From contig OZ241329.1 in NCBI GenBank assembly GCA_965199825.1, forward strand, positions 2,080,001 through 2,144,000: 64,000 bases of DNA, given 5' to 3'. The DNA is from Bdellovibrionales bacterium. GTDB taxonomy: Bacteria > Bdellovibrionota > Bdellovibrionia > Bdellovibrionales > UBA1609. The stretch's first letter is position 1; the number at the start of each line of letters is the position of its first letter. The notes under the pieces were generated by a model. It was not told the origin of the DNA. It saw nothing but the letters and a program-made list of their open reading frames with translations, and ran no database searches. This document shows, one piece after another, positions 9,698 through 40,124 of this stretch. The position numbers were made by a program, and so were the translations under genes.

Positions 9698-11835
9698 AAG
9701 AAAAATTAGAAAAATATCGTATCAGTCCAGATGAGTATCAAAAGATTTGCCAACTTTTAGATCGTGAACCTCAAGGTGTCGAGTGGGCTTTATTTTCGGC
9801 ACTGTGGAGTGAGCACTGCTCTTACAAATCGTCGCGGTTTTATCTTAAAAAATTTAAAACAACGTCCACCCGCGTTTTAGAAGGCATGGGAGAAAATGCG
9901 GGCGTGGTGGATTTAGGACTTGGTGAGCGCGTGGCTTTCAAAATGGAAAGCCACAATCATCCAAGTTTTATTGAGCCTGTACAAGGGGCTGCAACCGGTG
10001 TGGGCGGAATACTTCGCGACATCTTTACCATGGGAGCACGACCCATTGCCCTTGCCAATTACCTCTGTTTTGGAAATCCCAAGGCCCACAGGATGTCCGA
10101 GCTTGTTGAGGGTGTGGTGAAAGGAATTAGTTTTTACGGCAACTGTGTGGGAGTTGCCAACATCACCGGTCAAACCGAATTTCATTCGTCTTATGACGGA
10201 AATATTTTGGTGAATGCATTTGCTCTTGGCTATTTTGGTCCAGAGGATCAAATTGCCAATTCGCGGGCGCAAGGAATTGGAAATTTAATCATCTATGTCG
10301 GGGCCAAGACCGGGAGAGACGGCATTCATGCGGCTAGCATGGCCTCTGAAAGCTTTGATCAAAATTCTGAAAGTAAAAGACCAACTATACAAATCGGCGA
10401 TCCGTTTTATGAAAAACTTTTGATCGAGGCGTGTCTTGAAATCATCCAACAAAATCTGGTGGTGGCGATCCAAGATATGGGAGCTGCGGGGCTCACATCC
10501 TCAACCTTTGAAATGGCCCAAAAGGGCGGCGTCGGATTCAGAATAGATCTCGACCGAGTTCCTCTAAGAGATTTAACTCTCACTCCAGAAGAAATTTTAT
10601 TGTCCGAAAGCCAAGAGCGAATGCTTCTGATTGCCGAGCCCAAAAATCTCAAAGCAATTCAAGATGTGTTTACTAAATACACCCTTGATGCCGCCGTCAT
10701 TGGCGAAGTTGTCGAGGGGCAAGATGTTGAATTGCGCTATCATCAAAAGACTTTAACAAAAATCAATCCGCATCTGTTGACCGAAGGTGCGCCACTTTAT
10801 CAAAGGCCTTTTACTGAGCCCGAGATCCGAATGTGTGAAAAGCTCACACCCTTGGACAACACCGATGCTCTCGGACTTTTTTTACAAATGATTTCCTCCC
10901 CGCAAGGATGTAGCCGTAATTTTATTTATGAGCAATATGATCAGCGTGTGGGGGGTCGAACCGCCAGAGACTGTCGGTCTCCGGTGGGAGTGGTCAAACT
11001 TCCGTCGGATCGATTGTTAGGAATTGCAATGGGATTTCGGCCCACGCTCATGCGACTGTGTCCCCATGTGGGCTCCGTTGATTCGGTGATCTCGGCTTGT
11101 CTTAAGCTTTCGGCTTTGGGATTTGAGCCGTTGGCCACCACCGATTGCCTGAATTTTGGATCTCCCGAAAATAAAGCAATTATGGGTGAATTTATCGTGG
11201 CGGTAGATCAAATAGCAAAAGCTGCCGAAGTCTTTCATGCGCCTGTGATCAGCGGCAATGTCAGTCTTTACAACCAAACTCTGGATAAGAGCATCACCAA
11301 CACGCCATCGGTCGGCGTAGTGGGAATCAAAACAAAGATGGAGCTCACGCCGAGCTCGACTTTTACAGATGTTGATCAAAATATTTTTGTTTTGAGTTCG
11401 GTTGATGTAACAACCTTTGGTGATTTGTCTGAATTATTAAAACTTCCACTAGAGCACACCGGAAAAATTCACCTTCAGGCTCAAGCCGATTTTGCCAAAC
11501 ACTTACGACAAATGGCCCAAAATTTTACCAGCGTGCGGGTGGTTACAAAATTTGGAATTCCTTATGCTTTGTTTAGAATGTGCACCGAAGAGTTGGGTTG
11601 CAGTGTCAATTTGAATGTCAAAGATCTCTCTGAGTTATTTGTGGAAAAACTTTATCAAGTGATTGTCACAGGCCCAAAAAACCTGCCGGAATTATTTCCG
11701 CATCAGGCGTTTGTGCATATTGGTTCAACCAAGAAGACTATTTTTGAAATTGTGGGACATATCAAAACCGATGTGATGAGTTTAATTGAGCATTACAACA
11801 AAGGATTTGGAGATCACTTTGCCAAGCTTTCATGA
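9694..11835 (+). CDS. purL: FGAM synthase subunit PurL (small type)
   Basis: WSEHCSYKSS, ESHNHPS, GAATGVGGI, DMGAAG, SESQERM, SGNVSLYN. Confidence 0.96.
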   Translation: MKEKLEKYRISPDEYQKICQLLDREPQGVEWALFSALWSEHCSYKSSRFYLKKFKTTSTRVLEGMGENAGVVDLGLGERVAFKMESHNHPSFIEPVQGAATGVGGILRDIFTMGARPIALANYLCFGNPKAHRMSELVEGVVKGISFYGNCVGVANITGQTEFHSSYDGNILVNAFALGYFGPEDQIANSRAQGIGNLIIYVGAKTGRDGIHAASMASESFDQNSESKRPTIQIGDPFYEKLLIEACLEIIQQNLVVAIQDMGAAGLTSSTFEMAQKGGVGFRIDLDRVPLRDLTLTPEEILLSESQERMLLIAEPKNLKAIQDVFTKYTLDAAVIGEVVEGQDVELRYHQKTLTKINPHLLTEGAPLYQRPFTEPEIRMCEKLTPLDNTDALGLFLQMISSPQGCSRNFIYEQYDQRVGGRTARDCRSPVGVVKLPSDRLLGIAMGFRPTLMRLCPHVGSVDSVISACLKLSALGFEPLATTDCLNFGSPENKAIMGEFIVAVDQIAKAAEVFHAPVISGNVSLYNQTLDKSITNTPSVGVVGIKTKMELTPSSTFTDVDQNIFVLSSVDVTTFGDLSELLKLPLEHTGKIHLQAQADFAKHLRQMAQNFTSVRVVTKFGIPYALFRMCTEELGCSVNLNVKDLSELFVEKLYQVIVTGPKNLPELFPHQAFVHIGSTKKTIFEIVGHIKTDVMSLIEHYNKGFGDHFAKLS

Positions 11836-36659: not shown

Positions 36660-37739
36660 ATGCCTTCGCACTTTCACTTTAATGCCAAGATTTTGGGTTC
36701 GATCTTAAAAGCGGATTCGCCGCTGGAGATCAGAACCCTTGATCTTCAGAATCTCAATCAAGCCAATGATTTTATCAAAGCCTACGGATATGATTTGAAT
36801 CTCCCAGAGGATGAACAAAAATTATGGGACTATCATAAAAGAGCCTGTGATTTTATTTCGAGCGAACTTTTAAATTCAAACGAGCATATCCCCGAAGCCA
36901 TTTCGAATCGCGAACTGCTCAAAGATCTTAAATATCTTTTGATTTATGCAAGCACCCAAGATTCGCGGCCCGAGAGCTTAAAGGCTTGGTCTTGCGCACT
37001 ATTGAGGGTGATGCATGTGCTCGCCCATATTCATAACGATTTGTTTACCGCTTACTCCTCACAAATCAGTGAGCAGATTGTAAAGCCCTTTCAAAATTGT
37101 GTGTTTGAAGAAGATGAAACTTTATTTTTGGGATCAAAGTCAGAGACCGAGCGCATCGAGCTCAAAAAATTTGAAATCAAATCTTTTAAAAGCAGTGACT
37201 CTTCAATCCTAAAATTGTTGGCAAAACGCGAAGCCATTGCCTTCGGAATTTTAGACAAGATTGGGATCCGATTTATCACCGCCACCAAGTTTGATACCTT
37301 TCGAGTTCTGCGCTACCTCAATGACAAAAGTATAATTAGTTTTCCACAAGGTGTGGTGGGGCAGAGTAACAATACGCTTTATCCCTTTAATTTATTTTTA
37401 GAGGTGATGGAGTCTTTGAGTTCGGGCCACAATTTAACCTCAGAACAAGTGGATGAGCTTTTAGACAGCAAGCTCAAAGAAGAATCCTTGAGGGCCGAAT
37501 ACATCGAAAAAACAAACATCTTTTCGGGCACCGATTATAAATTTATAAAATTTATTTCTCGCAGGCTTATTCGGATTTCACTCAGTGGAAGCCAATTTTC
37601 ATTTTTTTATCCCTTTGAAGTTCAACTGATTGATGCAAAAACTCATGCCCAAAACCTTTTTGGCGCAAGCTCTCACGACGAGTACAAAAAGCGCCAGCGC
37701 GGCGCCGCCCGCCGCCGGATTTTGGGTGAAGGGGCTTGA
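36660..37739 (+). CDS. TIGR04552-like protein with RelA/SpoT-type nucleotidyltransferase motifs
   Basis: KSSDSSILKLLAK, ILDKIGIRF, DYKFIKF, PFEVQL, SHDEYKKRQ. Family name recalled from memory. Confidence 0.7.
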   Translation: MPSHFHFNAKILGSILKADSPLEIRTLDLQNLNQANDFIKAYGYDLNLPEDEQKLWDYHKRACDFISSELLNSNEHIPEAISNRELLKDLKYLLIYASTQDSRPESLKAWSCALLRVMHVLAHIHNDLFTAYSSQISEQIVKPFQNCVFEEDETLFLGSKSETERIELKKFEIKSFKSSDSSILKLLAKREAIAFGILDKIGIRFITATKFDTFRVLRYLNDKSIISFPQGVVGQSNNTLYPFNLFLEVMESLSSGHNLTSEQVDELLDSKLKEESLRAEYIEKTNIFSGTDYKFIKFISRRLIRISLSGSQFSFFYPFEVQLIDAKTHAQNLFGASSHDEYKKRQRGAARRRILGEGA

Positions 37740-37795
37740 GGGTTTGGTGGGGTTTTGGTTTGGGGTTTGCGTTGGTGAGCTGCCTGCTGTGGCCT

Positions 37796-38087
37796 TGAAC
37801 TTGCTGTCGATTTGATTTCAAAAAAAGTAAGAATGGATTGTCTTAAATCGTTTGCTCCTGATTTGATTACCCAGAGCTTTGAATTTTTGTGACGATTAGA
37901 CCAAGCTTGGTTTGCTGAATACTTAATTTGTGACGAATTGACCGGCGCATAGTCTCTTCAAAGGTTCAAATTTTTGCGACGATTTGATCTGAACTTGGTG
38001 AGCCGGAATAATTAAACTTTTGTGACGTTTTGACTGAGCTTGTTTACCCAGATCGTTTAAATTTAAATGTCGATTTGATTAAAGCCT
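37796..38087. repeat. Degenerate direct repeat array, ~46-bp period, consensus AAATTTTTGTGACGATTTGACyGAGCTTGGT
   Basis: Units start at 37881, 37922, 37968, 38014 and 38059 (spacing 41/46/46/45), with a weaker copy at 37796. Confidence 0.8.
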
Positions 38088-38577
38088 CTGCCACACTCCG
38101 CATAAAACCTTGGGCTTCAAGAATATTGATTTCGATATACTGACAAACACCAACAAAATCTTTCCGTCCTTGAGTCACGCGAGTAAAAGGGCGGAGATCG
38201 AAAAACTTGCCCACAATATTTGTGGAGCGGTTTAGTTTTTTTATCCCCGTCACAATTGCCGACGTGAGAGCCCTGATGAAGGGTTTATAAGTGAAACGAT
38301 TAGAAAGCTTAATATGCAGATGAATGTGATTTCCAACGTTTGCCAAACCAATCACCTGGATTGAAAATCGCCGCGCAAATTTCTGAATGTAATGCTCAAT
38401 GACCGTCTTGTTTTTAGGTTTTAAAAAGGACAAGTCGTCGATCGCCTGTGATGAGCGTAAAATAAGATGAATTGTATTCTTCGTATCCAACGGCCTAGGG
38501 CCACGTCCTTTTCGCTTGCGGTAAAGCTCACCCCCATGAGCGTGACTTTGATTTTTAAAAAAGCTCTCCTGCTTCAT
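38044..38577 (-). CDS. HUH endonuclease/transposase (Y1_Tnp, IS200/RAYT-like), 177 aa
   Basis: IHLILRS, NVGNHIHL (HUH), FFDLRPFTRV, QYIEIN (catalytic Tyr). Start at 38577 supported by the promoter. Confidence 0.85.
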   Translation of the reverse strand: MKQESFFKNQSHAHGGELYRKRKGRGPRPLDTKNTIHLILRSSQAIDDLSFLKPKNKTVIEHYIQKFARRFSIQVIGLANVGNHIHLHIKLSNRFTYKPFIRALTSAIVTGIKKLNRSTNIVGKFFDLRPFTRVTQGRKDFVGVCQYIEINILEAQGFMRSVAEALIKSTFKFKRSG

Positions 38578-38583
38578 AAAAGT

Positions 38584-38612
38584 AAGATAAACAAAATTTA
38601 GATATAAGTCAA
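38584..38612 (-). promoter_or_regulatory. Sigma70 promoter giving a leaderless HUH transcript
   Basis: TTGACT-N17-TATCTT-N6-ATG, with an AT-rich upstream tract and no SD sequence. Confidence 0.7.
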
Positions 38613-39116
38613 AAAAAAGTTCATATATTTTAAGAATTTTATATAAATTAATTATGTTTAATTTGAGCGAAGGTGTTGAGTTCAAACGAACGGCTAATTA
38701 CACAGAATTTCATTTAGGCTGCAAGGTTTTTGGCACTGATAGGAACCCCAAATATTTGATCATATGTAAAATCTATGATCGCAACAATCTCGATTTGACC
38801 TTCCGATTCAAATCCAACGCCTACAAATAAAACATATTTAATTTATGGTGATCAAAGGTTTCAGCGCCTTGCAGCATAGAGCTTTGGATTGGGCCTGGAA
38901 TTCAAAGAGCCAACTTCCTCATTGCAAGACAGAAGAGGACCTTAATTTTTCCAGTAAAAAAGGACTCAAAACTATCACCCGCCACCGGCGCATCCAACCA
39001 GCCACCGCGAAACCCCCACACCAAACAACACCAACCCACTCCCAAATTCCAAACATAAAAATTGTATCGAAATTCATCGCTAGGTATACCGATCGTATAA
39101 GACGAGGGGTTAACGA

Positions 39117-40124
39117 ATGAAATGTTTGTGGGTATTGTTATTAGCGGCTAAGGCGTTTGCGGTTGAGCCCTTGGGACATTTAGAAATTCGTGATGTTTTA
39201 TTAAGACCTTCGTTTTCGATCAAGGAGCCCTCAAATGGGGAGTTCTCCATTGGGGAATCTTCGCTCGCTTTTGGATGGCGACGTGATGAGACCTTTTCAT
39301 CTTTTGTACTTTTAGGTGAGCGCACACTTTTAAATCAGCCAGCCATTTTTACTCCGCTCCAAAATCCGGATGACCTCACCTTTGTAGAGGCTTATGCCCA
39401 GATCGAAGGGCCCTATGGACGATTTCGGATCGGAAGAATTCCGATTGATTATGGTGGAGAAGGGGAGCTGCGAGAATCCGAGTTGATGTTTCCGCGCAGT
39501 TATTTATTTTCTCGTGGGGTGAGTGCCTTAAGAGATTTAGGAATGAGTTTTGCCATTCGTAATAACGGTTTTTTTACCCGCCTTGCGATTCATCAAGGAG
39601 AGGTTGCCAAAAATCTAGATGGTCGCATGTGGTACACGGCTGCTTGGGGCTGGTCAGATGAGGAGCAATTCGAAATCGGGGTGATGGGCACAACGGGCCG
39701 CACTTCGCCGCTCTCCACGTTGGGAAGTACTTCGACACTTGCCAATTTTGATCCCACCTTAAGTTCGAAGTGGACCATGTGGGGGCTATTTGCAAAATAT
39801 CATCCCAAGGATTTTAAAATATTGGGCGATGTGACCATCGGTCAAAATCAACAAAACGGAAGTCAAAATTTTACGGTGGGACATCTTGATCTCGCCTACG
39901 ACATCAGCAGTAATTTTTCGGTGCAAACCCGATTCGATGGTTACAACCCCCACTCGAGCACCAATGAGTTTGCCAAAACATTTTCGCTTGGCACGGCCTA
40001 TCGCTCGGATCATGACACCACCGTTATTTATCTGATTGCGAGCAAACGTTGGGAGCTTGAGCAAAGTACCGAATTTCGCCTGATCTTAAGACTCACCCCG
40101 CTGCCCTCCACAACTCTTTTTTGA
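39117..40124 (+). CDS. Secreted hypothetical protein, probable porin-like beta-barrel
   Basis: Signal peptide, FVEAYAQ..GRFRIGR, RDLG, amphipathic strands. GAGGGG RBS. Confidence 0.65.
   Translation: MKCLWVLLLAAKAFAVEPLGHLEIRDVLLRPSFSIKEPSNGEFSIGESSLAFGWRRDETFSSFVLLGERTLLNQPAIFTPLQNPDDLTFVEAYAQIEGPYGRFRIGRIPIDYGGEGELRESELMFPRSYLFSRGVSALRDLGMSFAIRNNGFFTRLAIHQGEVAKNLDGRMWYTAAWGWSDEEQFEIGVMGTTGRTSPLSTLGSTSTLANFDPTLSSKWTMWGLFAKYHPKDFKILGDVTIGQNQQNGSQNFTVGHLDLAYDISSNFSVQTRFDGYNPHSSTNEFAKTFSLGTAYRSDHDTTVIYLIASKRWELEQSTEFRLILRLTPLPSTTLF

Follow-up and report, generated by a model that had tools for sequence, protein, structure and literature searches.

A predicted mobile HUH nuclease gene of Bdellovibrionales and a tandem array probably derived from its own 3' end

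The window analysed here, that is, the whole 64,000-nucleotide stretch of contig OZ241329.1 from a Bdellovibrionales bacterium, contains a gene for a 177-aa protein that is located between two host genes and is followed by a short tandem array (Table 1). The assignment of this ORF to the HUH/Y1 nucleases in the preliminary description is borne out by a Pfam match to Y1_Tnp (25.2 bits, cut-off 23) and by the residues H84 and H86 (H84-I-H86), Y147 and N151, which are invariant in an alignment of 57 of 83 homologs found. The match to the IS200 equivalog NF033573 is below threshold (16.3 bits, cut-off 55), and the Pfam search detected no second domain in the protein. Y147, part of the motif YIEINILE (family pattern YIxINxLE), is the candidate catalytic tyrosine; beyond the catalytic helix, the C-termini vary across the homolog alignment. 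When the structure model of the protein (pLDDT 89.5) was used as a query in a structure search, IS608 TnpA was retrieved first by E-value, and the TnpA-REP structure 4er8 showed the highest TM-score (0.57, rmsd 3.3). The features that define TnpA-Y1 proteins, namely the HUH motif, a single (predicted) catalytic Tyr and the Y1_Tnp fold, are all present and, judging from its sequence, the gene encodes a TnpA-Y1/RAYT-like HUH nuclease of Bdellovibrionales with predicted cutting activity.

Table 1. Features of the nuclease insertion and its surroundings (window coordinates)
Feature	Position	Strand	Evidence
Flanking host gene, TIGR04552 family, outside the element	36660..37739	+	family match; syntenic in relatives
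Low-complexity tract, C/A-rich on the gene strand, downstream insert edge	37741..37777	.	sequence
Weak sixth unit (U5), core only, 21-27/46 to the others	37781..37824	-	
Unit 4, closest to unit 0 (33/46), repeats the stop-codon context, holds the 12-bp palindrome	37865..37909	-	
Unit 3, 41 nt, 5-nt deletion	37910..37950	-	
Unit 2, 46 nt	37951..37996	-	
Unit 1, 46 nt	37997..38042	-	
Unit 0, last 15 codons and stop of the ORF, likely array source	38043..38087	-	
HUH/Y1 nuclease gene, 177 aa, TnpA-Y1/RAYT-like	38044..38577	-	Pfam, alignment, structure model
QESFF, clamp-binding-like motif, residues 3-7	38557..38571	-	family motif count; weak complex score
Sigma-70-type promoter candidate TTGACT-17-TATCTT, leaderless	38584..38612	-	consensus match only
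Arm 1 of 23-nt inverted repeat (91%), begins at the 3' end of the 12-mer	38643..38665	.	
Family 12-mer ACCWTCGNTCAC, last base off consensus here, about 95 nt upstream of the ATG	38663..38674	-	
Arm 2 of 23-nt inverted repeat (91%)	38824..38846	.	
Low-complexity tract, G/T-rich on the gene strand, upstream insert edge, mirrors the downstream tract	39010..39054	.	sequence
Flanking host gene, 335 aa, no family, outside the element	39117..40124	+	family searches; synteny

The hosts of homologs at six loci are Bdellovibrionales or Bdellovibrionota, and matches to the protein at E<=1e-30 were found in 64 of the 384 genomes of the order. This genome carries 17 copies of the HUH gene at 30-65% identity, namely the window gene, one paralog each at 65% and 45%, and 14 copies at about 30%, without strand bias (9 leading, 8 lagging). 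The 65% paralog (L028, C1:1215113-1215628) has a frameshift near its start and is located directly upstream of a tRNA-like sequence. Fourteen loci (C1: 853684, 1598984, 591678 and others) form a second HUH subfamily whose upstream motif differs from that of the window gene; this motif occurs in several same-direction copies upstream, and 39 of its 48 matches lie within 3 kb of an HUH gene.

At the window site, the nuclease gene is an insertion. The two flanking genes are 1377 nt apart here compared to 61-282 nt in 14 of the 29 relatives; in another 12, the 335-aa gene follows after 0.8-1.0 kb, mostly with another conserved gene that is present elsewhere in this genome, and in the remaining 3 it was not seen near the TIGR04552 gene. 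None of the 29 relatives has an HUH gene within 1.5 kb of the TIGR04552 gene, and this empty site, together with the multiple diverged copies in the genome, indicates that the nuclease gene is mobile. Low-complexity tracts that mirror each other at 73-75% lie at the two edges of the insert. Among homologs, 12 of 159 have a C/A-rich tract downstream, as do 5 of the 17 paralogs, as opposed to 5 of 1560 control windows, and the general C/A strand skew around homologs is weak on average (0.52-0.54). The 23-nt inverted repeat next to the upstream 12-mer (see below) may be a mark of strand-switch at the 12-mer site. The 91-aa ORF at 38845-39120 has no Pfam match. Two sequencing runs, X1 and X2, which come from one study and are possibly the source of the window, contain sequence identical to it.

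The preliminary description attributed to the gene a near-consensus leaderless promoter of its own, and a candidate was indeed found, ending 6 nt before the ATG; it is a consensus match only and, given that a scan finds 4 such sites compared to 3.3 expected, the scan alone proves nothing. What had been overlooked is the conserved site of the family, which is located upstream of the gene. The 12-mer ACCWTCGYTCAC (with at most one mismatch) is present upstream of 127 of 165 homologs, where it either covers the -10 box and discriminator of a leaderless start or lies between the -35 and -10 boxes. These two promoter registers suggest, on the basis of sequence, that the 12-mer is an operator. In the window gene and the 65% paralog, it is located some 95 nt before the start and is not part of the promoter, which is separate.

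The same 12-mer is strongly over-represented in this genome. There are 143 exact copies of ACCWTCGNTCAC, mostly inside genes (reversed control, 0), compared to 0-34 copies in the other 383 genomes of the order, and ACCTTCGTTCAC alone yields 57 copies versus 0.4 expected. A wider pattern gives 221 sites, 170 of which (77%) are located in ORFs, in all frames, with no polarity relative to replication (103 leading, 118 lagging). Three of the 143 exact copies lie in the window, at 1856 (+), 16665 (-) and 51385 (-). Spread of the 12-mer as a 12-bp in-frame insertion was rejected for the aligned sample, in which 0 of 14 sites were gapped (14 of the 170 in-ORF sites were aligned to orthologs, with 1.2 of the 3.3 Mb of genome G026 compared). 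In peptides such as VNEG, the motif codons are used 16 times versus 0.5 expected; considering this bias and the absence of gaps, the 12-mer appears to have been gained by substitution. No hairpin family is present among the top 50 over-represented 12-mers of the genome.

Several other repeats were encountered. An HNH endonuclease family (Pfam HNH; 28 loci, e.g., C1:475560-476411) has its own 10-12-nt motif, with 415 sites in 100 clusters, many of them tandem arrays of 16-25-nt period. At C1:1967630-1967980, three 116-bp tandem units directly follow a tRNA-like gene and are themselves followed by a variant copy of the 12-mer. In the 12-kb contig C2, an AT-rich unit of 320 bp is present at about 10000-11600 in five near-perfect copies in tandem; this contig is free of all the chromosome motifs and may not belong to this organism.

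Close to its N-terminus, the nuclease contains a sequence that resembles clamp-binding motifs. The pattern Qxx[LFMI][FLI] is found in the N-terminal segment of 139 of 171 homologs, at a fixed position 11 residues before a conserved GG in 135 of the 171, and in 15 of the 16 intact paralogs of this genome, the background being 3% of ordinary N-termini. The stricter pattern QLx[LF][FL] is found in 42 of the 171 homologs, and the window copy, QESFF, is a poor match to the beta-clamp-binding consensus QL[SD]LF given in passages of PMC6006769 and PMC3971601. Binding of DnaN by IS608 TnpA is described in PMC5027513. The predicted complex of the window protein with host DnaN (L348) scores 0.53, compared to 0.00 for the best of three controls, where 116 of 157 solved pairs, but also 2 of 215 mismatched ones, pass the mark for such scores; at values of 0.60 or less, it is passed by only 18 solved pairs and by both mismatches. 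The runs agree in at least 90% of contacts, with a partner pLDDT of at least 75. This model weakly supports docking of the protein on host DnaN, and the complex may owe its pass to likeness to solved clamp-peptide complexes.

The array comprises five units and a weak one, of 41-46 bp. All six repeat copies listed in the preliminary description, including the weak one, are present, with spacings of 41/46/46/45, and so is the 12-bp palindrome at 37900-37911, albeit in one unit only. The repeat is also significant against shuffled sequence, where four copies of one 17-mer at 13/17 or better were reached by 0 of 300 dinucleotide shuffles; the same level is attained by 12 of 250 intergenic windows of this genome, and in 11 of these 12 the motif of another selfish nuclease family is present. 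Tandem Repeats Finder, at score 30, did not call the array. The subdivision of the units into about 30 conserved and 15 variable bases did not hold up: the units are alike at 26-33 of 46 positions (57-72%), with a mean column identity of 66% and 7 invariant columns, the 17-nt core being better kept than the remainder, and the supposedly variable part is common to unit 0 and unit 4, in which 9 bases running across the stop codon are identical. In predicted folding, the array does not surpass shuffled sequence (RNA z +0.40, DNA z +1.35), and an Rfam search of it returned no family, with one chance match at E 0.82.

The likely source of the array is the gene itself. The last 48 nt of the ORF match unit 4 locally at 27 of 35 positions, through the stop codon, a level that 0 of 1000 shuffles reach. 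The 65% paralog (C1:1215116) has homologous last 15 residues (AEAFVKSARNFRRSG vs AEALIKSTFKFKRSG) and no array, so that copying from gene to array is the likely direction; on this sequence comparison, the gene probably preceded the array.

The unit appears to be private to the locus. It was found in none of 346 other loci, showed only chance-length matches (46 nt or less) in the 383 other genomes of the order, and had no match in phages. In its own genome, it has 2 other matches at 1 mismatch and is not spread, its cores occurring in 1-4 copies versus 0.1-1.4 expected, and the four 'variable' segments match nowhere else in that genome. A match of the two-unit pattern to a viral contig (L354) was rejected as an unrelated perfect 15-bp microsatellite.

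A related strain (run X4), 0-7% different in neighbouring genes, contributes one 435-nt contig, of depth 2.9 and possibly from a paralog, that matches the ORF over 198 nt except for 7 differences; exactly from the stop codon on, its other 237 nt diverge from the reference. Its first 30 downstream bases are unit-like (18/28 to unit 2, by eye) and are as far from the window units as these are from each other. This sequence hints that the flank changes faster than the gene; given that it is unit-like, the array may also be old and persistent, which could be explained by a function, too. Run X3, from another study, includes one 222-nt contig of depth 2 that is identical to window positions 37865-38086 and ends at most 2 nt from the ends of units 0 and 4, the rest of the 19.9 kb being uncovered; the run was picked for holding this contig, which is probably one stray fragment. 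No RNA run with this organism was listed; one of the same label gave 10 partly matching reads over 19.9 kb and is uninformative either way on expression.

For comparison across the family, 217 loci were gathered (one source contributing the best 80 of 213), of which 203 were unique and 166 had a complete 3' end and 350 nt of flank. An array was called when the best direct-repeat score was at least 16, a threshold chosen on the homolog set; the window array scores 17. Arrays were detected downstream of 31 of 166 homologs, upstream of 33 of 153, and in 7 of 283 windows at 950-1400 nt. When only flanks with at least 150 non-coding nt were considered, downstream arrays were found for 21 of 78 homologs versus 6 of 115 matched ordinary genes taken from 40 stretches of genomes carrying the nuclease family (odds ratio 6.7, p 3e-5; the p-values of these counts overstate significance because kin genomes and same-genome copies were pooled). 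Thus, tandem arrays are about five times commoner behind genes of the nuclease family than behind ordinary genes. In further controls, arrays were present at 10 of 237 genes in G026 and, for this genome, at 17 of 376, which include many HNH-family motif arrays. About three quarters of the homologs are without an array. The preliminary description held that a lack of comparable arrays in homologs would count against its proposal; this array is indeed missing from the homologs, but where they have a non-coding flank, about one in four carries another one.

The arrays of the homologs are unrelated in sequence, have periods of 12-113 nt and start between -40 and +200 from the stop. The end of the ORF itself was found repeated behind 5 of 94 homologs compared to 7 of 600 controls (p 0.015), as in L003, L062 and L095. 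Likeness of the units to the 12-mer at p<0.05 was found in 1 of 31 downstream and 4 of 33 upstream arrays, and growth of arrays on degenerate 12-mer copies was accordingly rejected for the downstream ones; for the window array, this likeness is not significant (p 0.47, gapped p 0.38). With no fixed array start and no 12-mer, position alone ties the arrays to the chemistry of the enzyme. Fresh arrays, which make better test cases than the decayed one in the window, are located behind L003/L014, L062, L105, L074 and L087; in L003 and L062, it is the end of the ORF that is repeated, in copies of 31 nt and 34 nt, and the others are long 18-19-nt arrays. Among the 45 closest pairs of loci (85-95% nucleotide identity), likeness begins near the -35 box and ends at the stop, beyond which it falls to background, with the exceptions of L061/L069 and L140/L143, and the flanks of copies that are 90-95% identical are already unalignable. 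What is kept between close copies is only the promoter with the 12-mer through the stop codon, with no right end.

By analogy with the features of published subclasses, the protein would work like a TnpA-Y1 class-2 enzyme; the nuclease lacks defining features of IS200/IS605, of the REPtrons and of the TIRtrons. Our literature searches found no paper on this nuclease family, and the main text of PMC6006769 and PMC3733652 does not contain the name Bdellovibrio, although the supplements may list members. The closest resemblance is to subclass 2.1 of TnpA-Y1 class 2 (TIRYT-TIRtrons), as outlined in parts of Quentin et al. 2018 (PMC6006769) and Di Nocera et al. 2013 (PMC3733652). The similarities include the core of HUH and a single Tyr with NHxH and Y-x-x-x-N, the distance of about 61-63 aa from HUH to Y, the several diverged copies per genome, the lack of REP hairpins and a short non-palindromic motif beside the gene; furthermore, the sister subfamily has the motif GGGGCA... 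on the other strand, close to the GGGGWSAS of TIRYT 2.1. In contrast to that subclass, the family pattern YIxINxLE lacks the class-2 proline (Y-x-x-x-NP), the protein, at 177 aa, has no C-terminal HTH extension (the subclass median being 238 aa), and it possesses an N-terminal extension with a clamp-like motif and one upstream site only. No TIRYT terminal inverted repeats, which in that subclass mostly contain GGGG[AT][CG]A[CG], are present here, the only match to this motif being inside the ORF; between the insert flanks, the longest inverted blastn match is 9 nt, apart from the low-complexity mirror tracts (73-75%).

With RAYTs (TnpA-REP), the nuclease shares the best structural fit by TM-score (0.57 to 4er8, rmsd 3.3), and tandem clusters beside the gene as well as a genome-wide short repeat are known for RAYTs from part of PMC3116915. 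Unlike in RAYTs, the downstream array is not built of the spread motif, and the latter is a 12-mer without a hairpin, 77% inside ORFs, that was gained without insertion. Compared to the TnpA of IS200/IS605 (IS608, ISDra2), the catalytic fold is the same, and clamp interaction and fork targeting have been shown for IS608 (PMC5027513, PMC3971601). The differences are Y147-x-x-x-N151 in place of Y-x-x-x-Q (invariant in 57 homologs), the lack of TnpB, copies that are 30-65% rather than about 99% identical, and the N-terminal position of the clamp-like motif, the one proposed for IS200 being C-terminal. We found no subterminal hairpins, no TTAC/TTGAT-footed hairpin and no conserved 3' end of the IS200/IS605 type, nor any GTAG/GTGG/CGTC-footed REP hairpins in 37740-39116, which agrees with the preliminary description that neither kind of element fits the array. 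The array differs from a CRISPR-like one in that its units are 57-72% identical and the sequence between cores is common to units 0 and 4. The HIP1 element of cyanobacteria and DNA uptake sequences are short words that are more than 100-fold over-represented in coding DNA, on both strands, and arise by substitution. The 12-mer is likewise a word over-represented more than 100-fold across coding DNA, on both strands and by substitution, but it is asymmetric, reaches this level in 1 of the 384 genomes of the order, and is a promoter motif of a transposase family.

The array quite probably consists of gene-end copies that have decayed and have no function. Given that its units are decayed gene-end copies not common to relatives, it is likely to be a by-product of the predicted enzyme activity rather than a set of guides or targets. 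With respect to the cause, we lean, with some caution, towards a functionless scar, left when DNA beside the gene was re-copied after predicted cuts of the enzyme at replication forks. In this chain of events, the protein would dock on the beta clamp via its N-terminal motif, bind the 12-mer (which, being inside the gene's own promoter in most homologs, makes it likely to be an autorepressor as well) and nick single-stranded DNA in cis; faulty rejoining or slippage in repair would then duplicate pieces of 12-110 nt in either flank, and, as selection would keep only the promoter and the ORF, the copies would decay. The repeated HUH-mediated copying proposed in the preliminary description is thereby supported in part only, by units that copy the gene's own 3' end and by the enrichment of arrays beside the family. 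Copies of the same origin might also have arisen independently of the enzyme, through ordinary replication slippage in the unconstrained sequence that surrounds a recently inserted gene. This scenario is in agreement with the lack of a common array start or motif, with the periods of 12-113 nt and with the facts that ordinary genes have arrays too (6/115, 10/237) and that most homologs have none; it seems fairly unlikely to us in view of the roughly five times fewer arrays of controls matched for non-coding length, the unalignable flanks of copies with 90-95% identity, and the 11 of 12 equally repeat-rich intergenic windows that carry a selfish nuclease family motif.

A function of the units themselves, either as the copy's own recognition or nick sites (a private right end) or as a processed small-RNA array, is considerably less probable. 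The absence of any structure, Rfam match, unique spacers or phage match speaks against the RNA array put forward in the preliminary description, and its other suggestion, recognition sites, is at odds with a unit that is found in 0 of 346 other loci, has only chance matches in 383 genomes and is not spread in its own, in a family without a conserved right end. The core does resemble the 12-mer minus one base, in a gene whose upstream 12-mer is off consensus, but this likeness is not significant (gapped p 0.38), and what would be the 'spacer' of unit 4 is in fact the tail of the ORF itself. The better-kept 17-nt core with 7 invariant columns, the unit-like core in the related strain and the public 222-nt contig that spans exactly units 0-4 remain in favor of function. 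It is highly improbable that the order of events was the reverse, such that the gene inserted next to a pre-existing repeat and acquired its C-terminus from it: the variability of the family C-termini beyond the catalytic helix would allow for this, but the paralog elsewhere with homologous last 15 residues and no array largely refutes it, and the empty sites of relatives contain no such repeat.

The re-copying scenario can be extended to a one-ended, clamp-riding HUH element that not only moves but edits DNA. Such an element would erode and re-copy its own flanks, the array being one product. In this lineage, two copies have their 12-mer displaced from the promoter and may have escaped self-repression; here, the element would have placed its 12-letter site, by substitution, at more than 140 positions, some of them in housekeeping genes. 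As a whole, this extension is speculative, and we consider it unlikely.

The array itself matters little and is a poor candidate for a guide or target array. The interest rests on the nuclease family, that is, on how REP-less Y1 transposases move and what they cut. With a likely site (the 12-mer), a likely host hook (the clamp motif) and a measurable footprint, namely flank duplications and, in one lineage, substitutions that created the site throughout the genome, this question becomes testable with one small protein plus some oligonucleotides. If it is true that the enzyme drives its own site into coding DNA, this would be a new route to genome words similar to HIP1 and uptake sequences.
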